From NCBI GenBank assembly GCA_963718685.1, contig OY970356.1, positions 497,031 through 561,030 on the forward strand: a stretch of 64,000 nucleotides of DNA, given 5' to 3'. Source of the stretch: an uncultured Candidatus Saccharibacteria bacterium. GTDB lineage: Bacteria > Patescibacteriota > Saccharimonadia > Saccharimonadales > Saccharimonadaceae. The notes under the pieces were generated by a model that searched no databases, was not told the DNA's origin, and saw only the letters and a program-made list of their open reading frames with translations. Positions 11,771 through 50,644 of this stretch are shown in pieces. Position 1 is the stretch's first letter, and every line of letters begins with the position of its first letter. A program made the position numbers and the translations under genes.

Positions 11771-12430
11771 TTACGGATTAAAGTTTAGAGATTTAACGAT
11801 ATTATTAAAGTCGTGCACATAGGTTTGCAAGTCGGTTTGCAAAATAAGAGTCTTGTCGCGAACCTTAAAGATAACGGCTGCACCATTTACGTTAGGCGTA
11901 AAATGGCCGTCCAGACGTGTGCCGTTATATCCGGAAGCTTGAGCCACAGAGCTGCGCAATGCCCCACTTTGCAATAAGCCCTGGTATTGCTGCAAGACCT
12001 GAGAATAAGTTTGATTTAAAATAGAGACTCTCAAACCAAACTTATTATTGCCGTTGGTTGATGGAACCTGGTCTTTATTCAAATATGCCGCATAGGTGCC
12101 GCTCGTGCCCGGATTATATATATAAACGCTCCAGGTTTTAGGGTAGTCAAAAGAAACGCGGCCAAGATCATCCGGCCCGACGAATTGTTTATTCGGCTCT
12201 TTTTCGCGCTCGGCAAAAGTTTTATTGTCTTGGTTGAGCTGCTGCTGCTTTGCGTCAGCTACGGCACTGTCAATCTTGCTGTTAACGTTGGTTTTTTGGT
12301 CGTTATAGTTAACAAGTGCCCAAATCATTACCGAGCCCAGAACCAACACCAAAATACTTAGCACTATGTTAACAACCAGCTGGCCGGTTACCAAGCCAAC
12401 TTCTTGTTGTAAAATGCGTTTATTCTTCAT
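11771..12430 (-). CDS. membrane-anchored hypothetical protein
   Basis: One N-terminal TM, then a Q/N-rich extracytoplasmic region. Confidence 0.55.
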   Translation of the reverse strand: MKNKRILQQEVGLVTGQLVVNIVLSILVLVLGSVMIWALVNYNDQKTNVNSKIDSAVADAKQQQLNQDNKTFAEREKEPNKQFVGPDDLGRVSFDYPKTWSVYIYNPGTSGTYAAYLNKDQVPSTNGNNKFGLRVSILNQTYSQVLQQYQGLLQSGALRSSVAQASGYNGTRLDGHFTPNVNGAAVIFKVRDKTLILQTDLQTYVHDFNNIVKSLNFNP

Positions 12431-12472
12431 GACGATAACTATACCCTACCCGGCTTAGGTTTGTAAAGACGC

Positions 12473-12979
12473 TTACGGTTTAAGTTTATAAAGATGCATC
12501 GGCCCTACGTTTTTTTGTAAAGGCACGCTGGAGGGCAATTTAAAACTATAACTAATAATCGTAAGGGGCCGGCGTGTTCTTACCACGTGAGCCTTCAAAT
12601 AACGTTCAAGCCGCTTCATGTCGCGGCCGTTGATAAAAACGTACACCAACGTAGTTTCAGCCGGCAGCCGCACCAACCAAAAATCACTCCAGCGGGTAGT
12701 TTGGTTTTTATAGTTTCGCCCTAAAAACCAAGCCATAAACACTAAAAACGGGTTGAGTTCATAGCCAATGGCTTTGGCGCCTTTTTTGGAAGCATATCTG
12801 AGCAAACTGCCGTCGCCCGAGCCCAGATCAACCACTACGTCACGCGAGCCAACTTTATACAACTCATCAAAAGCCTGCTGGCGTTGGCGCTTCATGGTAG
12901 GCACGTAAGGCGCACCGCGGAAAACTACCAGCCCAAAACTGGCCAGCAGCAAACCTCCTAAAACCAGCCAACCCGGCAC
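12473..12979 (-). CDS. class I SAM-dependent methyltransferase
   Basis: Motif I VVDLGSGDGSLL, N-terminal TM. Confidence 0.6.
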   Translation of the reverse strand: MPGWLVLGGLLLASFGLVVFRGAPYVPTMKRQRQQAFDELYKVGSRDVVVDLGSGDGSLLRYASKKGAKAIGYELNPFLVFMAWFLGRNYKNQTTRWSDFWLVRLPAETTLVYVFINGRDMKRLERYLKAHVVRTRRPLTIISYSFKLPSSVPLQKNVGPMHLYKLKP

Positions 12980-13191
12980 TATTTTTCCTCTTGATCAAAT
13001 CGTTTAGATAAAACTGTAATTTCGTTTTTCAGCTCACTAAGCTGCTTTTCAATTTCTTTGGACAGTTCATCGGCTTCTTTAAACTTTTTCAGCGCATCCT
13101 CAATTGAAAAATCTTCTTGGTCAAACCAAGCCACCAGCTCGTCGAGCTTTTTTAACTTGGCACTTAGATCTGAATTATTTTTTGCTGACAT
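12979..13191 (-). CDS. xseB: exodeoxyribonuclease VII small subunit
   Basis: 70-aa helical protein directly downstream of, and overlapping, xseA. Confidence 0.75.
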   Translation of the reverse strand: MSAKNNSDLSAKLKKLDELVAWFDQEDFSIEDALKKFKEADELSKEIEKQLSELKNEITVLSKRFDQEEK

Positions 13192-38759: not shown

Positions 38760-39296
38760 ATGGCTAACGACCTAGCCAAAGAGGCCGATGAGCTCCTGGA
38801 GTCTATCGGCGACGTTATAAACAAGCTGGAGATCCAAGAAAACCAGCTTAACGAACGCATCAAAAAAGTCAAAGGCGAGTTCGGCGACAAAATCGACGAG
38901 CTCACCAAGCGGCGCGACGACTTGGCCGGCCAGCTCGCCGGTCTGGCAAAACAGCACCGCAAAGAGCTGGTCGAGCCCGGCACTAAGATGATTTCGCTGC
39001 GTCACGGCCAAATCAGGTGGCGGCGGTCGCCACGGGCGCTTGAGGTGGAGGACCACGAGGCCATCATTATTGAGCGAATTCGTCGGCTTCGCGGTCTACG
39101 CACGTTCACTCGCGTAGGCAAACGCACGCTCGACAAAACCAAGCTCAAGGCAGCGCCCGGCTTCGTCACCAGGGTGAAAGGTCTCAAAATCACCCAAACC
39201 GAAGACCTGGTCATCGACCCGGCCAAAGTTCAAAGCGAGATCGTCCGCACGGGCGACCCGCTCAAATTCCCTGCCAGCCAAGAAGGAGAGGACTAG
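38760..39296 (+). CDS. Mu Gam-like host-nuclease-inhibitor (DNA-end-binding) family protein
   Basis: 178 aa. N-terminal coiled coil, then ISLRHGQIRWRRSP...LDKTKLKA, which resembles the Mu Gam family. GC-rich. Confidence 0.6.
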   Translation: MANDLAKEADELLESIGDVINKLEIQENQLNERIKKVKGEFGDKIDELTKRRDDLAGQLAGLAKQHRKELVEPGTKMISLRHGQIRWRRSPRALEVEDHEAIIIERIRRLRGLRTFTRVGKRTLDKTKLKAAPGFVTRVKGLKITQTEDLVIDPAKVQSEIVRTGDPLKFPASQEGED

Positions 39297-39300
39297 AAAC

Positions 39301-39328
39301 CGCCCCAGTGTTTAAAAGCACTGGGGCG
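39301..39328. terminator. bidirectional hairpin between the convergent gam-like gene and hsdR
   Basis: CGCCCCAGTG-TTTAAAAG-CACTGGGGCG, perfect 10-bp stem. Confidence 0.7.
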
Positions 39329-39335
39329 AATCTAA

Positions 39336-42300: not shown

Positions 42301-42398
42301 TCCTCGCCATCAGGTCCAATATCTGGGCCATGCAAAACTTCCCACCTTAAATCAGCTAATATTTTTAGTGCTTCTTGCTCTACTTTATCCTCGGTCAT
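39336..42398 (-). CDS. hsdR: Type I restriction enzyme R subunit
   Basis: Nuclease core [20 protein letters not shown], helicase motifs [16 protein letters not shown] and TGTPI, 1020 aa. Confidence 0.95.
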
Positions 42399-43438
42399 TG
42401 CGCTAGCCTCATTCTAGCAGCAGTTCTTCTAATTTTTGCAATTCTAGGATCTTTGGTATCAGTATTAAATTCTCCCGCATTTTTCTTATCTAATAAAAAA
42501 TCCAGGGCCTTCTGATTATATTTTCTAAGTTCACTGTTTTTATAGGGTTTAAAAATATGCATATATTCATCTTTCTGCAATCCATAATAAATTGCTAAGG
42601 ACCTACCATTATTTGCCTTAGACGAGGAGTTTCCTTTAAATCCAAGCTTCTCCGCTAGTAGGGCGGCATTGTATTTAAATTCAATTTCCGGATCGATTTT
42701 CCTTTCTATAATTGTACCAGCGCCTGTTATATCTCCGATGATCCTTAAAGTTGGCGATCCGTCTTTTTCTTCAAATTGTCCTTCTTTTATGAATTTTATT
42801 TTTTTCAATAGTTCTTCATCTATCACAACGCGCCCACTATTTCCCGATAACTCTCCAGTATTAACATTTAAAACCGCTGCATTTTCAACTCCAACCTTTG
42901 CCATTCTTTCAAGTTGGGCCAGCCAAAGCTGTTTCTCTTTTTCACGTTTATCATCAATCATTTTTAATAACTGAGAAGAATTAATGCGTTCTGACCTTGC
43001 ATTATTCCTGAAATAAATATCACCATCTTTAAGGCTTTGTCCGCTTTTTGTACAAACTATAGGTTTTTGGTCATGCTCATAAATGTAAATCCATCCGATC
43101 TTTGTTCTCTTATTTAATTCTAAGATTTCCATTTCAAACAAGGGAATGCTGGAAAAGTAAGATTTTAATGATTCTGATATTATTTCTGGTGTAATCTTAG
43201 AGAAATTATTGGAACTTAATCCTATTATTTTATGAGGGCTATCTTGAACACCAAAAATTAATAAACCACCTTGGTTATTGGCAAACGCAACCATGGCTTT
43301 CATATAAGTTTCTTTATAATCGCCCCAGATGAAGCTCTGTTTAAAATCAAGCTTACTTGATTCTCTAGCTATAACGTGTCCTCTTTTATTAGTTTTGAGC
43401 CTAGTTTTAACGAAGTCTCTAATTGCTTCTAAATTCAT
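42395..43438 (-). CDS. Schlafen/AlbA_2-like domain protein embedded in the R-M operon
   Basis: [10 protein letters not shown] ... [18 protein letters not shown] ... [12 protein letters not shown] matches the AlbA_2 signature by eye. ~180-aa C-terminal region unassigned. ATGA overlap with hsdR. Confidence 0.65.
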
Positions 43439-44274
43439 TACTCATTCCTCAGTAACTGAAAAAGCATTATTGTGTAATGCAAGACAAACCCGGCTTCTTC
43501 ATGAGTGGGTGCTCGACCTGTACCAGTCTGGTGGTTTCCTCGTATTTTTGAAAAGTCTTTCATGATTTCAAGAAATTTGTCATTGTCATATAAAGTATCA
43601 GCCGGTAATGGATAGTCCTCAGGATTTGTTCGCATCTTTTGCAACAAAGTTCCGAGTTGGGTTCTGGTTTCATTTGGAAAATATTTATCCCTCAATAGAC
43701 CAGCCAGAGCATCCGTGCAGCGAGTCACTGTTTTCTCATCGTCAGGTTCCATACCGTAGTGAGACTCCCAAGCTTCCGCCACCAAGTCGTTTGCATTCAT
43801 TATTTCTTCTACCTGTTTTTTAACAATTGGAACAACTCTGTATATTAACTTCATTTTGGTTTGTTTCCATTTTACTGCTCTATCCTCTGTTACCACATTC
43901 ACCTTTTTAATTTCAACTTTATAAGCAGAGCTGGCTTCGCTTAGTATTTGTTCGAGCCTCTTACCTTCTTCTTCATCAGCGATTTTTTGTAATATATAAG
44001 ATAAAACATTACGAGACACTTTATTGCTAGAAAATATAGTGTCAAAAAAATCGGTCTCATTAGGAGGCAAAGAGCTTCTCAATTGCCTACTTAGCGGCAA
44101 AAGAAAAGTGTCAAAAAAATATCCTCTTCCTATCACACCTTGGGCCATGTCATGTTTCTTCAGGACATTGAAAATCCAGTTCTTAACACTTGGCAGGAGA
44201 TAGTTAGTAAAATCCTCAGTCAGTACAGACTTGTCAAACTCATATTCTTTGTCAAAAGGCTCGAAGTTGGTCAT
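43438..44274 (-). CDS. hypothetical helical protein, Abi_C/AbiJ-like layout (tentative)
   Basis: 278 aa. C-terminal TRCTDALAGLL...LGTLLQKM...FSKIRGNHQTGTGRAP...AGFVLHYTIMLFQLL resembles the Abi_C layout but lacks a clean Rx4-6H. Coupled at both ends. Confidence 0.4.
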   Translation of the reverse strand: MTNFEPFDKEYEFDKSVLTEDFTNYLLPSVKNWIFNVLKKHDMAQGVIGRGYFFDTFLLPLSRQLRSSLPPNETDFFDTIFSSNKVSRNVLSYILQKIADEEEGKRLEQILSEASSAYKVEIKKVNVVTEDRAVKWKQTKMKLIYRVVPIVKKQVEEIMNANDLVAEAWESHYGMEPDDEKTVTRCTDALAGLLRDKYFPNETRTQLGTLLQKMRTNPEDYPLPADTLYDNDKFLEIMKDFSKIRGNHQTGTGRAPTHEEAGFVLHYTIMLFQLLRNE

Positions 44275-45413
44275 ACTTTTATCTTTCCAGAGATTAGGCG
44301 TGGCAGTAGTGAATCTCGCAATTTAATCAAAGTTTGAATTTCCTGGTCATTATTGTGCATATGTACTCTTAGGGGCTTTACTTCATCGCCAAAATTATTA
44401 ATTTTGCTAGTCGGTGGTAACTTAACGCCAAGTTCTTCAACAGCAGTTCTGCTTAACTCCGTTTGCCCCGTTGTGCCGCTTCCCATGTCTTCAAATACCG
44501 GTTCTAGGTAGCGCATCATTTCGCCAAAGAAATATTTGTTAATGGTTGGTCTTACAACCGTAACATGTGAATCGAAAGTAGTATTTTCTGGCACTTCATC
44601 AACCTGGGCCACACGCCCTAACGTTCCTACGCCTGTAGAATTAATCAAAACGTCGCCATCGATCAACAATTTTTCACTACCGAATGTTTTACTCTGTCTC
44701 CGTGCGTTAATTAGGCTTAGCCTCTTAGCCCGTATACAACGCTGGTTTACCACCAAAGTTTCGCCTCGTTCGTCGTACTTTGGAGATATGCCGCGGCTAA
44801 TATAATCTGAGATTTTCTTGAGTGTTACAGTTTCCCAGCTTTTGGCTTCGGGATTGTCTATAAAATAATACTTAAAAAGGGCTTGGCCGATTTTTTCTAA
44901 AGTCTCGTTCATTTGTCGATTCAATTCAATCTTTTCGTCAATTGACTCTAGTATTTTTACTGCATTGATCTGGTTAGATTCACCTGGCAGATCTACCTTT
45001 AGTTCCTTAATACTCTTCAAGCTGATTGTTTTTTGCGTAGAACCCGTAGTCTTAAACTTTATTTGTCTTTTTCCCTCTGGCGATACCAACCAGTAGTAAA
45101 TATATCGACTGTTAACTTTCGGTAGAATAAAAACAGTATTTTGACCTAGGCAGAAATCTTCATCAAATCGTACATAAGAGGGTATACCTTCTGTACCAAC
45201 ACGAGAAAATACAATATCACCCTGTTTGGGTTTGTGCTTTTTGGAGAATTGTTTATACACTTCATGATCCACACGGAAACAATTTGAGGTATCTAAATAT
45301 CCTGACTTGATATCCGTTACCCGAACCATTGGAAACCCAGTCTCAGCATATTTTGGAGTCTGGTGCAGACTATCGACAATTTCCGCAACATCACCAAGCA
45401 AAACCGTCTTCAT
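44271..45413 (-). CDS. hsdS: Type I R-M specificity subunit
   Basis: Two target-recognition halves separated by helical spacers, 380 aa, between hsdM and hsdR. Confidence 0.85.
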   Translation of the reverse strand: MKTVLLGDVAEIVDSLHQTPKYAETGFPMVRVTDIKSGYLDTSNCFRVDHEVYKQFSKKHKPKQGDIVFSRVGTEGIPSYVRFDEDFCLGQNTVFILPKVNSRYIYYWLVSPEGKRQIKFKTTGSTQKTISLKSIKELKVDLPGESNQINAVKILESIDEKIELNRQMNETLEKIGQALFKYYFIDNPEAKSWETVTLKKISDYISRGISPKYDERGETLVVNQRCIRAKRLSLINARRQSKTFGSEKLLIDGDVLINSTGVGTLGRVAQVDEVPENTTFDSHVTVVRPTINKYFFGEMMRYLEPVFEDMGSGTTGQTELSRTAVEELGVKLPPTSKINNFGDEVKPLRVHMHNNDQEIQTLIKLRDSLLPRLISGKIKV

Positions 45414-45955
45414 TTTTTCTTATCCTTGCTTTGAGCACTATTGGGTTGACGTGATGATTTTGCACCCATAAGAAGTCCGAATTCTTTTGGTTTTATCGTT
45501 GTATCGTAATCATTAATTAAAGGTCGCATAAGTCTTATTGCTCCACTTCCTAGCCTACGATTTGATAGGCCAATATCTTTCCTCATTGCCCTGAACACAT
45601 TAGTCATAAGAACCATCGTGTGAAAACCGTCGCTGTTGCCCTTGTATGAGTTCTGTAGCATATCGGCATATGCGTTTATTACCTTCGGGGACGAATACAG
45701 AACTGCTTTCCGATGAAAATCTTTCATTTTTTTAACTATTTCTTTTTGCTGATTGGGCGTAACCTCGGTTTCTTGCTCTTGCAGATCGCTGAGGAACTTC
45801 AAAATAAAGTTTACATACTCTTGGTACATTTCGCGCTTAATTTGTGCGTTTTCTGAACTAAACTGAGCTTTTTTATCCAGAAAATACTTAATAAGATAAC
45901 CGATTGCGCCGCTAGATATAATCCCTATTAGGGTCAGCCAATTTTCTGTAGTCAT
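45410..45955 (-). CDS. single-pass membrane protein of unknown function embedded in the R-M operon
   Basis: WLTLIGIISSGAIGYLIKYF TM, then a helical domain and a basic tail. ATGA overlaps at both ends. Confidence 0.6.
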   Translation of the reverse strand: MTTENWLTLIGIISSGAIGYLIKYFLDKKAQFSSENAQIKREMYQEYVNFILKFLSDLQEQETEVTPNQQKEIVKKMKDFHRKAVLYSSPKVINAYADMLQNSYKGNSDGFHTMVLMTNVFRAMRKDIGLSNRRLGSGAIRLMRPLINDYDTTIKPKEFGLLMGAKSSRQPNSAQSKDKKK

Positions 45956-46437
45956 TTTTTTTGTTCCTTTGTTGGGAATTGGTTGAAATATGGTCCCCGT
46001 AAATCTGCGGCTCGTTCTAGCTCTGCATTTATTTTTATTTGCAATTCAGCATGTTTTTTAGCTTGCTCTTCAACGTCAAAAAAATCACCGGAGTATAAGA
46101 TACCCTTATCCGCTATATGTGTGCCGTGTGCAAAAATGTTGCGGATTTTAAGCCAATTACTGAACAGTGTTCTATTGAGCTTACCGCTATTCCCATGCAT
46201 TCGTTCGTATATTTTTGCTAAAATATTGATTTTTGTATCCAACGAGATTCCCCTATCATTCATTACGTCAAACATGAACGCCAAATATGTGGCTTGATAA
46301 TTTGCCTTTGGACATCGAGTATAGAACTCGGTTATGTAAGCGTTTATCATGCTCTCTATAGATGTCGCCTGAGCGATCACTCTTCCTATTAGTCCTAGCT
46401 CTAGAGTAAGCTTGTCTGTACAATTATCAGAACTCAT
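45952..46437 (-). CDS. small HEPN-domain protein (predicted RNase) embedded in the R-M operon
   Basis: 161 aa, all-helical. CGC AAC ATT TTT GCA CAC = RNIFAH (Rx4H) at 46126-46143, followed by G. Confidence 0.6.
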
Positions 46438-47920
46438 AACCGATCTTCTTTAAATTATCTTTAATTTGCTTTTCTAATTTGTCAGATTCTGCGAATTGTC
46501 CTTTTAACTCAGTTGTTAACTTTTGCATCTTTTCTTCAAACGCTTCGTCGTCTTCTTCTATTTCTTCAGCACCAACATAACGTCCAGGAATCAAGACATA
46601 ATCATGTTCTTTGATCTCGTCCAGGGTTGTTTCTTTGCAGAAACCGGCAACGTCTTCGTACTTATTATTCTGCTGCTTCCATTCGTGATAAATGCCGGCT
46701 ATTTTGGCAATGTCACCGTCGTTAAACTCACGATTACGCCGATTAACCATATGCCCTGTATTGCGCGCGTCTATAAATAAGGTTTTGCCACTGCGGTTTT
46801 TACGGTCGCGCGAAATAAACCACAGACACGCTGGGATTCCAGTGTTAAAGAATAGCTGGCTTGGCATGGTAACAATACAATCAACTAAATCTGCCTCTAT
46901 AATACTTTTACGAATCTCGCCCTCGCCGGAACTTTGCGAACTCATAGAGCCATTTGCCAAGACAAAGCCAGCCGTACCTGTTGGGCTAAGATGATGTATA
47001 AAATGCTGAACCCAAGCAAAGTTAGCATTGCCTTTTGGCGGAGTGCCAAACTTCCATCGCACATCATTTGCCAAAAGCTCACCGCTCCAGTCGCTGTCGT
47101 TAAATGGCGGATTGGCTAATACGAAGTCGGCTTTGAGGTCTTTTAGCTGGTCGTTATGGAGCGTGTCGCCATATTTGATATCTGCGTCTATGCCACGAAG
47201 GGCCATGTTCATGACAGCTAGCTTCCAGGTGGTTTGGTTACTTTCCTGACCGTAAATTGCAATATCCCCTAGTCGGCCGGAATGCTCTTCTATAAATTTT
47301 TCACTTTGAACGAACATTCCCCCACTGCCACAGCATGGGTCATAAATCCGGCCTTTATATGGCTCTAGCATCTCGACAAGCAAGCGAACGATGCTGCGTG
47401 GAGTATAGAACTGCCCGCCACGCTTGCCTTCTGCATCGGCAAACATGCCGATGAAGTATTCATAAATCCGGCCTAGTAAATCTTTTTCTTTATGGCCGCT
47501 GCCATTTAGCTGTATATTACTGAAAATATCAATTAGCTCACCTAAGCGGCGTTTATCTAGAGCTTCCCGCCCATAGTTTTTTGGCAAGACTCCTTTAAGC
47601 TTCGGGTTTTCTCGCTCAATGGCGTCCATGGCATCATCAATAATTGTGCCGATTTCTGGCTGCTTGGCGTTATCGCGCAAGTACCACCAGCGAGCTTCTT
47701 TAGGAACCCAAAATATATTTTCTGAAGCATATTCGTCTTTGTCTTCAGGGTCAACATATTCTTGGCTTTTAAGTTCTGCATATTTTTCTTCAAAGGCGTC
47801 AGATATGTATTTGAGGAAAATTAATCCAAGTACTACATGCTTATACTCTGCAGCGTCCATATTATTTCGCAGCTTATCAGCAGATTGCCAGAGTTTTTGC
47901 TGTATTTCTTGAATATCCAA
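46427..47920 (-). CDS. hsdM: Type I R-M N6-adenine DNA methyltransferase subunit
   Basis: Motif [12 protein letters not shown], motif IV LANPPFN, HsdM N-terminus [36 protein letters not shown] start with AAGAGG SD 6 nt upstream. Confidence 0.95.
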
Positions 47921-47967: not shown

Positions 47968-47976
47968 ATTATAGCA
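47968..47976 (-). promoter_or_regulatory. extended -10 (TGCTATAAT) of the R-M operon, inside a small palindrome
   Basis: Minus strand TGCTATAAT. Plus-strand GTGCT-CATTAT-AGCAC at 47962-47977. Leader hairpin TTAGAGC-TTCGT-GCTCTAA at 47939-47957. Confidence 0.4.
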
Positions 47977-48018
47977 CTTTTATCTCTGTTTTTAAACTAA
48001 ATTCAAAGGATATTACTT

Positions 48019-48092: not shown

Positions 48093-48226
48093 AGATTGAC
48101 ATAAGCGTTAACGGTATGATATGCTTAAAGTACAAATGAAACTGGTTCCGAACTGTCACCGTATGGTGTGCGTGCCTAGGACAACTAGGATAGGAGCCAG
48201 TTTCGACTTTACATAGAATAATCATT

Positions 48227-48862
48227 TTACTTAAACTCCCAGACATCTTCTATTCTTTTCTTGATAATCTTTATATAGCGTTTTGAATCTGTCTTATCCT
48301 TCTGGTAGGAACGATGTATGGATCCTGCTACTAAGTCTGCGAGTTGAATCAGGTTGTTTGTGTGTGAGTCAACAAATCTGACTTTGGCAATTTTTTTCGA
48401 CCTAGAATTGATCATGCGCCTGAAGTAAGTGACGGCGCTTTTTTTATACTCTCTACCTGAATGCCCGTCTAGCCGAACATCGGCTTTGTTTAGACTATCT
48501 GTTTTTGCCAAAACTTCTTTAATTGCATAGTTGTAAAAAGAATCTTGCTTGTTTCTTAACTCTTGGCTGCGAATTACAGATTTATTTATGCAAATAGCGC
48601 GCACCCTGAAGTTCTTTGAGCCGAGTCTTTTGAGAAGTTCTGCAGTGATATCTTTTTTAGTTTTATTAAACTTAAATTCTCTATTGTCCGACCACTTTAA
48701 CTCCCTGCGATATTTTTTCATTACCAAAGCCGTTTCTTCGGCGTCGAGATTGTCGTCAAAAATTACGCAAGCTATTACAAAGTGACTGCTAGAACCCTTA
48801 CCTAGCTTAAAACCTGGATCGCCAGAGTCATCTATAAAAACTAGTTGTTTTGTTTTCGCCAT
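48227..48862 (-). CDS. DUF3800-family protein
   Basis: N-terminal LVFIDDSGDPGF plus HFVIACVIF typical of DUF3800, 211 aa. Confidence 0.65.
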   Translation of the reverse strand: MAKTKQLVFIDDSGDPGFKLGKGSSSHFVIACVIFDDNLDAEETALVMKKYRRELKWSDNREFKFNKTKKDITAELLKRLGSKNFRVRAICINKSVIRSQELRNKQDSFYNYAIKEVLAKTDSLNKADVRLDGHSGREYKKSAVTYFRRMINSRSKKIAKVRFVDSHTNNLIQLADLVAGSIHRSYQKDKTDSKRYIKIIKKRIEDVWEFK

Positions 48863-49435: not shown

Positions 49436-50584
49436 TTAACTTTCTTCCTCACTAAATAGTTCAACGTAATCACGATAAATGTATTTTTGACCGTATGTAT
49501 CAGTGTCTTTAGTAGGAAAAAGTATTCCCATACCTTTGAGTCTTTCGATAACCCTATAAGCACCTGGGCGAGTATAGCCTGTCCATTTCACAATATCAGC
49601 AATACCTACCGTTGGTAAGCGATAAAGATTGCGAAGAACCTCAAGTGTTGTGGGGGCTGAAGCTCGACCGAGTTTTTGGACTTTACGCATATCGCGTTCG
49701 CGAACTTCGGTTATTTTCTGACATGTGACAATAGCTGACTGTGCTGTTTCTATAATCCCATCCATAAAGAAATCGAGCCATTCGCTGATACGCCCTTCTT
49801 CTGAATGATAGCCATTAAGTCTATCGTAGTAGGTGTCTTGATGTTTTTTAAAATATGACGACAAATAAAGCACCGGCATTTCTAATAGTTTTTCATGCCA
49901 CAGAAACATAGTAACCAATATGCGTCCAGTGCGGCCATTGCCGTCAGCAAATGGATGGATTGTTTCAAATTGAGCATGTAAAAGACCAGCCTTTATAAGT
50001 GGCAGGTAGTCATCATCGGCATGAATAAACTTTTCAAGATTACTAAGAGCGTCTTTCATATCGTGAACCGGAGGCGGCACAAACCTAGCATTGTCGGGAC
50101 GTGTACCACCAATCCAATTTTGGCTAGTACGAAACTCGCCTGGAAATGGGTTGTGTGTAGTACGAGCGCCTGTCATTAGTTTTTGATGTAGTTCTCGTAT
50201 AAAACGAAGTGAAAATGGAAATTCTTTTGCTCGCTTAAGTCCATAATTCAATGCATCAATGTAATGTAAAATGTCATCAACATCAGCTGGAAGATCTGTG
50301 CTACGTTCAACATTTACCGCCTCAATAGCATCCATCATCGTTGCCTTTGTCCCTTCAATCTGGCTTGACGACGATGCATCTTTGCGGACAAACATTTCAA
50401 GAAAATAATCCTTATCTGGCAAAAGTTCAGTTATACCGTCTAGTTTTCCGATAAGCCGCACTGCTTCAGTATGTTTTTGCGACAAGGAACGATTAGTCAC
50501 AATTCCCTCAACTGGTGGAAACACACTAGGAACAAAGGCCTTAAAGCCTGTAGGTTGTTGAATATATTTTCCTATAATACTCAT
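49436..50584 (-). CDS. Fic-family protein (class II, N-terminal inhibitory helix) with C-terminal wHTH
   Basis: Fic motif HPFADGNGRTGR, inhibitory motif SSQIEG ((S/T)xxxE(G/N)). The ATG at 50584 (MSIIGKY) is preferred over the track start. Confidence 0.85.
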   Translation of the reverse strand: MSIIGKYIQQPTGFKAFVPSVFPPVEGIVTNRSLSQKHTEAVRLIGKLDGITELLPDKDYFLEMFVRKDASSSSQIEGTKATMMDAIEAVNVERSTDLPADVDDILHYIDALNYGLKRAKEFPFSLRFIRELHQKLMTGARTTHNPFPGEFRTSQNWIGGTRPDNARFVPPPVHDMKDALSNLEKFIHADDDYLPLIKAGLLHAQFETIHPFADGNGRTGRILVTMFLWHEKLLEMPVLYLSSYFKKHQDTYYDRLNGYHSEEGRISEWLDFFMDGIIETAQSAIVTCQKITEVRERDMRKVQKLGRASAPTTLEVLRNLYRLPTVGIADIVKWTGYTRPGAYRVIERLKGMGILFPTKDTDTYGQKYIYRDYVELFSEEES

Positions 50585-50591
50585 AGCAATT

Positions 50592-50620
50592 TGTTTACAT
50601 CTTTGGTTCCAATGTAAACA
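50592..50620. repeat. perfect 9-bp inverted repeat in the Fic leader
   Basis: TGTTTACAT (50592-50600) and ATGTAAACA (50612-50620). A third half-site ATGTAAAC lies at 50654-50661. Confidence 0.7.
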
Positions 50621-50644
50621 GAATAGCACATTTAGTTTATATCT

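Follow-up and report, generated by a model that had tools for sequence, protein, structure and literature searches.

We identified a prokaryotic Schlafen protein of 347 residues, Slfn347, encoded within a type I restriction-modification (RM) operon of an uncultured Candidatus Saccharibacteria bacterium, in a stretch of 64,000 nucleotides (nt) of contig OY970356.1 (assembly GCA_963718685.1) that is called the window here. The protein has a Schlafen/AlbA_2 nuclease domain with a conserved active site, its gene overlaps both of its neighbors in the operon, the subfamily to which it belongs is linked to RM operons, and its last part is homologous to the C-terminus of an unrelated family of HEPN ribonucleases (RNases). 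We propose that Slfn347 is a latent metal-dependent RNase that backs up restriction and has a trigger linked to RM status; its activity and phenotype are predicted, and we regard the case for this proposal as evenly balanced.

The open reading frame (ORF) that an initial annotation had placed at 42395-43438 is present on the minus strand and encodes, in order, a nuclease domain, a long helix, a conserved middle motif, and a C-terminal module. A database search with Slfn347 found 217 homologs. All three protein strings quoted in the initial annotation occur in Slfn347, the first (10 letters) beginning at residue 26 (position 43363), the second (22 letters) ending at residue 66, and the third (20 letters) covering residues 138-157; the range of residues 26-64 that it gave was two residues too short, as its own quoted text runs to residue 66.

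Schlafen nuclease domain and active site

The Schlafen-type AlbA_2 domain that the initial annotation had recognized was recovered by a strong and nearly full-length profile match. PF04326 (SLFN_AlbA_2) matched Slfn347 with E = 1.3e-19 and 71.3 bits (cut-off, 25.3) over profile positions 1-117 of 118, and judged on the sequence, this pattern is well beyond chance. Searching the chains of the Protein Data Bank (PDB) by sequence returned rat SLFN13 (5yd0; E = 1.5e-4) as well as SLFN14, SLFN11, and SLFN5, with mammalian Schlafens sharing 16-19% sequence identity with Slfn347. An AlphaFold2 (AF2) model built on 33 homologs had a predicted local distance difference test (pLDDT) score of ~90 or higher over the nuclease domain and of ~90 over residues 1-150, and it was confident over residues 1-182. 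The N-domain of SLFN13 (5yd0) was the top Foldseek match of this model (E = 4.8e-6), followed by DIP2311, SLFN11/14/5/12, and the tRNase domain of SAMD9, all with a probability of 1.00 (entries 3lmm, 7zel, 9jr9, 7cux, 7lre, and 9o0d), which supports the Schlafen core fold suggested at the outset.

We searched this domain for the acidic catalytic residues of Schlafens, and three acidic residues at the positions of the E/E/D triad were found in Slfn347 and are kept in its family. In the alignment to 5yd0, E26 and D31 match the two glutamates of ESASIEFK, and D66 matches the second D of GVDD; the three residues would be the equivalents of E205, E210, and D248 of rSlfn13, with the numbering offset taken from the 5- and 38-residue spacing. 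In an alignment of 33 full-length homologs (A1), R25, E26, K33, G57, G58, F62, and G63 were invariant, and D66 was conserved in at least 90%, the same position in the wider family being D in ~77% and N in ~16%. Ex4[E/D]xK was identified in all 120 of the best database homologs, and the GG-x-h-x-h-G motif was found at the right distance in 119 of them. With both Ex4(E/D)xK and the downstream acidic residue present, Slfn347 is, by motif, probably a catalytically intact Schlafen. This motif was defined for prokaryotic Schlafens by Perez Taboada et al. 2026 (PMC13056530), where two such proteins protected E. coli from phage and one of them cleaved tRNA once triggered. In the CRISPR-associated Schlafen CbCash, whose E17-D22-K24 has the same spacing as E26-D31-K33, this center was mutated and was observed with a Mg ion and a tRNA loop bound (PMC13462974).

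The strict retention of the active site speaks for an enzyme rather than a protein that merely binds DNA. A noncatalytic role, in which Slfn347 would bind nucleic acid to regulate transcription of the RM operon or as a nucleoid-associated protein, is suggested by the names of homologs ("putative DNA-binding domain" or "predicted HTH transcriptional regulator") and by the treatment of AlbA_2 proteins as nucleoid-associated proteins (PMC10561277). Binding alone, however, would not require the motif found in every one of the 120 homologs, and two bacterial Schlafen families that carry it are proven tRNases (PMC13056530, PMC13462974). We therefore consider such a role highly improbable.

Type I operon of the window

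The operon comprises 7 ORFs on the minus strand (47920 to 39336), ordered hsdM-ORF161-ORF181-hsdS-ORF278-Slfn347-hsdR, and all 6 junctions overlap, by 1-11 nt. HsdM, HsdS, and HsdR were all intact and full-length by Pfam and PADLOC. The ATGA overlap of Slfn347 with hsdR, already pointed out in the initial annotation, was read directly from the sequence, with GAGG at 42410..42407, 8 nt before the hsdR start. At the other end, the stop codon of ORF278 overlaps the Slfn347 start in TAATG, and GAGG is found at 43450..43447, again 8 nt before the start codon. Slfn347 is thus translationally coupled at both junctions, to ORF278 and to hsdR. The site before hsdM was the only good promoter-like site on the operon strand, and Rfam and tRNA scans found nothing inside the operon.

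The base composition of Slfn347 (GC content 33.8%; GC at third codon positions, GC3, 27.6%) differs from that of hsdR (41%), the operon neighbors (38-43%), and the window (43.9%), and its being richer in AT than its neighbors suggests arrival as a cassette. Three further ORFs are embedded in the operon. Searches of Pfam, NCBIfam, PHROGs, and PADLOC gave no match for ORF278. The N-terminus of ORF181 is hydrophobic, and PADLOC matched this ORF weakly to AbiN (4e-5); ORF161 had no family match, and homologs of these two were not found in 80 related loci.

The type I locus of E. coli that carries an anticodon nuclease gene has the order hsdS-prrC-hsdR, and PrrC is kept silent by the RM complex until Stp activates it, a control demonstrated for PrrC only. 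A PrrC-like position had been proposed for the Schlafen gene, and this is borne out by the closest relatives, in which hsdS-Slfn-hsdR is contiguous, and by the window, in which the order is hsdS-ORF278-Slfn-hsdR. Taken strictly, the parallel would have Slfn347 bound and silenced by HsdMSR and freed as an anticodon nuclease by a phage anti-restriction protein. The hsdS-hsdR slot, the coupling to hsdR, and the presence of a predicted RNase in a type I operon agree with such a guardian; against it, Slfn347 had no ABC ATPase, HEPN, or PrrC-model match in Pfam and PADLOC, and its subfamily also occurs in type III operons with differing subunits, contrary to recognition of one Hsd subunit. Other genes also part the Schlafen gene from hsdR in Saccharibacteria orthologs, and we consider the strict version improbable.

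C-terminal half of Slfn347

Residues 183-248 (42695..42892, minus strand), which follow the long helix, form the most conserved noncatalytic stretch of the Slfn family; they are acidic (isoelectric point [pI], 4.7) and had pLDDT <50 in two independent predictions. Within the middle motif, D207, F216, I217, E219, G220, F222, E224, G227, P229, and G235 were invariant or nearly invariant. The C-terminal domain (CTD; residues ~250-347) was predicted with pLDDT >90 as strand-helix-helix-strand-strand-helix-helix, and the C-terminal module is basic (pI 9.9; family median, 9.1).

Foldseek identified no significant neighbor of the CTD in the PDB (best E, 0.76) and gave borderline matches in BFVD, led by an unnamed phage protein (7.9e-3) and followed by antirepressor, Bro-N, and helix-turn-helix (HTH) proteins. 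Weak structural matches included MarR, eS19, forkhead, and phage antirepressor proteins. A profile search of PDB chains with the CTD returned no match, and in Pfam neither a HATPase nor an HTH family reached E ≤ 1 for the C-terminal 168 residues. A winged HTH, which the initial annotation had considered possible in this part of the protein, was therefore not called, the likeness being one of winged-helix-like topology with no significant structural or HTH match.

The sequence of the CTD led to a different family. PF18740 ("EC042_2821-like REase-like domain") was found below threshold in 9 of 16 homolog C-termini, and a profile built solely from the CTD retrieved fragments already annotated as PF18740. 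An exhaustive search of 1.84 billion representatives with the CTD profile retrieved 191 proteins, among them proteins of ~340-360 residues with a DUF3644/HEPN N-terminus in place of the Schlafen domain. These DUF3644/HEPN proteins match PADLOC PDC-S19 over their full length (E down to 7.8e-112), whereas the Schlafen homologs match only the last ~100 positions of this model (~245-352 of 357; E down to 3.8e-8). Comparing the C-termini of the two families by hhalign gave 98.8% probability (E = 7.5e-17; 73 columns), and both families share the signature YPY..K.LA.KLG....N.....L.LK....Y.......KYS..AL.FL. The HEPN partners keep an invariant Rx4H (R100, H105). By these profile comparisons, the last ~100 residues of Slfn347 are homologous to the C-terminal domain of DUF3644/HEPN proteins (PDC-S19, EC042_2821-like), and two unrelated RNase warheads would thus share one module. 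This link is not stated in the Schlafen, PDC, and HEPN literature surveyed.

Further, one protein of 248 residues (P0183) combines a Bro-N-like N-terminus (PADLOC PDC-S13; 5e-52) with the same C-terminal module (E = 7e-22; CTD profile), so that a Bro-N-like domain may be a third N-terminal partner. An active restriction endonuclease domain, as the name of PF18740 would have it, was rejected for the CTD, whose alignment shows neither an invariant column nor a conserved PD-(D/E)xK; as this alignment holds no invariant acidic residue, the module is probably noncatalytic. The basic charge of the CTD, its winged-helix-like topology, and its weak HTH and antirepressor fold matches fit the noncatalytic binder considered above, but no HTH match in Pfam or the PDB was significant, and the same module is attached to a HEPN RNase whose Rx4H is intact.

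Restriction-modification context of the homologs

We analyzed the neighborhoods of Slfn homologs for RM genes. The nearest relatives of HsdM, HsdR, and Slfn347 were found in Candidatus Saccharibacteria and Nanosynbacter genomes. In the 2 closest informative relatives (56-58% identity), hsdS, Slfn, and hsdR follow one another with no gene in between; one of the two contigs shows synteny to the window and has TGT and CorA downstream. Among 5 Saccharibacteria genomes at 45-47% identity, 4 carry an operon of the form hsdM-[variable]-hsdS-Slfn-[variable]-hsdR, in which the Schlafen gene comes directly after hsdS; the 2 genes overlap by 4 nt in both loci for which ORFs were read (L001 and L005). A Psychrobacter plasmid has the order hsdM-hsdS-hsdR-Slfn. 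The variable genes of the Saccharibacteria operons include an HTH gene with an M78 peptidase, an HTH-Panacea (SocA) antitoxin with an ORF of 136 residues, and AAA_21 with RloB. The type I operon of these relatives appears to be a scaffold on which defense cassettes are swapped.

The association is not confined to type I systems. Homologs that align over the full length at 31-37% identity occupy a fixed slot in type III operons of the order SNF2 helicase-DUF4391-Slfn-Mod-Res, identified in 11 loci from several phyla. Within this set, median identity was 58% for Slfn, 56% for Mod, and 52% for DUF4391; the Schlafen gene has diverged much like its neighbors, which argues for long travel with the type III operon and against recent insertion. 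In one of these operons (L049), extra cassettes (DUF1883-TIR and RhuM) were found at other junctions.

In a census of 80 genome loci, a homolog was counted as embedded when it lay inside a type I or type III RM operon on the same strand. Embedding was found in 19 of the 29 loci whose alignment reaches the CTD and in 8 of the 51 that share only residues ~20-240 (Fisher's exact p = 1.4e-5, an upper bound on significance, as the loci are not phylogenetically independent).

ORF278 has 35 homologs, which form a narrow family and lie between hsdS and hsdR without a Schlafen gene (L084 and L087/L088) or in a methylase-rich island (L085). A role as partner or antitoxin of Slfn347 was rejected for ORF278, since it is absent from all 80 loci with Slfn homologs and from the closest relatives and stands alone in other hsd operons. 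Its family occupying the hsdS-hsdR interval without a Schlafen gene points to an independent cassette.

Proposed mechanism and its alternatives

In the mechanism that we propose, Slfn347 would be translated together with the type I enzyme and held inactive. Phage infection would switch it on through its C-terminal part, which comprises the middle motif and the small basic domain, and the metal site formed by E26, D31, and K33 (with D66) would then cut RNA, most probably tRNA loops. Cleavage would lead to translation arrest and provide a second line of defense when DNA restriction fails to stop the phage. The trigger may be the failure or inhibition of restriction or the DNA products or complexes made by the RM system. 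A trigger tied to RM state is favored because the C-terminal module travels with two types of RM operon and also occurs in another RNase family that is unrelated, and we lean toward a cue that ATP-dependent restriction systems would have in common (inhibition, DNA ends, or stalled complexes) as a better fit than recognition of one Hsd subunit. The RNase activity of Slfn347, its tRNA target, latency, trigger, and any contact with Hsd subunits are all predicted in this scheme.

Several observations weigh against the proposal. The hsdS-hsdR interval hosts unrelated cassettes, including ORF278, YfbU, a KAP NTPase, AAA_21 with RloB, and a Panacea toxin-antitoxin pair, so that embedding alone is no proof of functional coupling. 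The fifth Saccharibacteria genome (L002) has kept the Schlafen ortholog without hsd genes, and 10 of the 29 module-bearing loci had no RM genes nearby, several of them being cut by contig ends. The 11 type III loci may stem from one insertion spread by transfer, in which case the Fisher test overstates independence. None of the genes for DUF3644-CTD proteins that could be placed adjoins RM genes (three examples on short contigs, in four loci, and one 19-kb plasmid locus); BLAST found neither Hsd nor Mod nor Res in the plasmid locus, which is from Paracoccus, and the RM context of these proteins could not be confirmed. PF18740 had no match to the Slfn347 sequence of the window itself, which matches a sister PDC-S19 model (positions 244-336 of 355) at only 4.2e-4. 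Further, of 7 pSlfn systems assayed in E. coli, only 2 were protective (PMC13056530).

Some of these points would also be expected of an autonomous abortive-infection cassette, in which a latent Schlafen RNase would detect a phage protein or nucleic acid unaided via its C-terminal part and would lie in the RM operon only because insertions are tolerated in that interval, which provides co-expression and co-transfer. The many unrelated cassettes in the hsdS-hsdR and hsdM-hsdS intervals of related genomes, the odd composition of Slfn347, the ortholog without hsd genes, and the sampled DUF3644-CTD genes that are not beside RM genes all agree with this alternative. It also has a precedent in pSlfn5, a system of one gene that brings its own sensor domain and in which RorSlfn5 senses a tail assembly chaperone (PMC13056530), and the selfish benefit of embedding was discussed by Payne et al. 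(bioRxiv 10.1101/2024.01.29.577857). However, the module-bearing subfamily is RM-embedded four times as often as relatives with other C-termini, its type III slot is fixed across 50-58% divergence, and both Slfn347 junctions in the window are translationally coupled. We regard an autonomous cassette as a serious possibility, though one that is doubtful on balance.

A trigger tied to RM state, as in the mechanism proposed here, could be generalized. The C-terminal module (residues ~221-347) may be a portable sensor of restriction status that ties interchangeable RNase warheads (Schlafen, HEPN, and possibly Bro-N-like) to type I and type III systems, both ATP-dependent. This broader idea is rather unlikely as it stands; if true, the proteins would be fold-independent analogues of PrrC, firing on restriction inhibition or DNA products.

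Features of the window and related loci

The positions of the elements described above are given in Table 1. Outside the operon, a gene similar to phage Mu Gam (38760..39296, plus strand) converges on the 3' end of hsdR, and a Fic-family gene (49436..50629, minus strand) lies upstream of a DUF3800 gene, so that the RM operon is flanked by other mobile or defense-type genes. The DUF3800 gene (48227..48862, minus strand) encodes a protein that matches PADLOC PDC-M04A. The only Rfam match in the window, a DUF3800-IX RNA motif (RF02968; 65.8 bits; 48139..48207, plus strand), was identified 20 nt past the 3' end of this gene on the opposite strand, with a sigma-70-like site (TTGACA-18-TATGCT with TG; 48096..48125, plus strand) just upstream of the motif.

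Table 1. Coordinates of Slfn347, its operon, and comparable loci in other genomes
Feature	Coordinates	Strand	Basis or remark
Slfn347 gene, prokaryotic Schlafen protein	42395..43438	-	ORF, 347 residues
Schlafen/AlbA_2 nuclease domain, residues 26-152	42983..43363	-	Pfam match, AF2, and Foldseek
Putative catalytic motif E26-SSKL-D31-F-K33 (Ex4DxK)	43340..43363	-	Aligned to E..E.K of rat SLFN13
Residues 57-66 with D66, third acidic residue	43241..43270	-	D66 aligned to 5yd0 GVDD
Long helix after the nuclease domain, residues 154-182	42893..42979	-	DSSP helix H154-182, AF2
Middle motif ID..L..KFIKEG.F.E..G.PTL..G, residues 205-235	42734..42826	-	Conservation in A1
C-terminal module, residues 246-347 (PDC-S19/EC042_2821-like CTD)	42398..42703	-	Model and profiles
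ATGA overlap, Slfn347 stop/hsdR start	42395..42398	-	TGA 42397..42395, ATG 42398..42396
TAATG overlap, ORF278 stop/Slfn347 start	43436..43440	-	Read from sequence
hsdR, type I restriction subunit, 1020 residues	39336..42398	-	Pfam HSDR_N, SWI2_SNF2, T1R_D3-like, T1RH-like_C; PADLOC REase_I E = 0
ORF278, cassette between hsdS and Slfn347	43438..44274	-	ORF
hsdS, specificity subunit	44271..45413	-	Pfam Methylase_S; PADLOC Specificity_I 2.5e-82
ORF181 and ORF161, embedded between hsdM and hsdS	45410..46437	-	ORFs with ATGA-type overlaps
hsdM, methyltransferase subunit	46427..47920	-	Pfam HsdM_N, N6_Mtase 3e-114
Promoter-like site upstream of hsdM	47968..47996	-	TTTAAA-17-TATAAT with TG extension, 10/12; consensus match only
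Terminator-like hairpin after hsdR	39300..39329	-	11-bp stem, 8 GC pairs, T-rich tail; consensus match only
Embedded modules in relatives, L001	6798..7928 and 11982..13074		
Embedded module in relatives, L005	11862..13672		
Five-gene type III operon, L079	6101..15953		Also L031, L049, L052, L054, L055, L065, L066, L073, L074

Comparison with known systems

Bacterial Schlafens were shown to be phage-triggered tRNases only in 2025-2026 (PMC13056530, PMC13462974). Like pSlfn5 (RorSlfn5) and pSlfn7 (EcoSlfn7) described in the former study, Slfn347 has an N-terminal Ex4(E/D)xK nuclease and a C-terminal accessory domain and is found among defense genes. Sequence kinship with these proteins is limited to the nuclease domain, and the accessory domain of Slfn347 is neither Ig-like nor DUF262, which places it in the class with no annotated domain (17%). 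Unlike CbCash, Slfn347 has no Csx15/cA4 sensor.

More than half of defense-associated Schlafens were linked to RM and other nucleases, with "Cluster 4" representing the RM-associated Schlafens (PMC13462974). The best PADLOC match of Slfn347, PDC-S50 (E = 2.1e-12), is confined to residues 25-179, including the long helix at 154-182, and to positions 17-177 of a model of 387; the C-terminal half differs. Payne et al. 2024 (bioRxiv 10.1101/2024.01.29.577857) derived the PDCs from genes lying inside BREX, DISARM, or type I RM systems, and PDC-S50 and PDC-S19, which carry PDC labels in PADLOC, are taken as members of this embedded-gene set. RM-embedded Schlafens were thus already catalogued in 2024-2026 (PDC-S50 and "Cluster 4"), and Slfn347 is a new example and not a new kind. 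As an example, the locus is compact, with a seven-gene, fully overlapping operon in a genome of ~0.78 Mb and a Schlafen in the slot of E. coli PrrC, and it would be useful for studying how RM-associated Schlafens are triggered.

One item is new, namely, that Slfn347 has its C-terminal module in common with an unrelated family of HEPN RNases, which is likewise catalogued as defense-embedded. The EC042_2821 HEPN family was described as fused to a C-terminal domain similar to restriction endonucleases and located in R-M operons (Anantharaman et al. 2013, PMC3710099). PDC-S19/EC042_2821 proteins resemble Slfn347 in having a homologous C-terminal module, a length of ~340-360 residues, a predicted N-terminal RNase, and a record as embedded genes. 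Their warhead is a HEPN domain with Rx4H, whereas that of Slfn347 is a Schlafen domain with no DUF3644 match in Pfam, and the KFIKEG middle motif is specific to the Schlafen family. The shared module points to a sensor candidate within Slfn347 and suggests a common control logic of RM-embedded RNases, whatever the catalytic fold; if true, this would explain the layering of restriction and abortive infection.

The EcoprrI type I locus contains prrC as an embedded gene (bioRxiv 10.1101/2024.01.29.577857). PrrC and Slfn347 have in common an RNase gene, predicted for Slfn347, inside a type I operon and a predicted role as backup by translation arrest. PrrC itself is an unrelated protein with an ABC ATPase and a HEPN domain, and the likeness is one of position and predicted role only. 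Membership in PrrC/RloC was rejected for Slfn347, in which Pfam and PADLOC identified no ATPase or HEPN match and PF04326 as the sole domain. The COG2865 type, in which AlbA_2 is combined with HATPase_c_4 and HTH ("RecG-like regulator"), was likewise rejected, as Pfam gave no HATPase or HTH match after the domain and 3lmm matches the N-domain only.

Mammalian SLFN11, SLFN13, and SLFN14 are tRNA/rRNA endonucleases used against viruses. Together with the tRNase domain of SAMD9, they share the fold and the acidic active site with Slfn347, which has a single AlbA_2 lobe and no helicase domain, whereas the mammalian Schlafens have a two-lobe N-domain. The tRNase of human SLFN11 is switched on by DNA damage signals, and a control logic common to RM-embedded RNases would, if true, extend this parallel to Slfn347.

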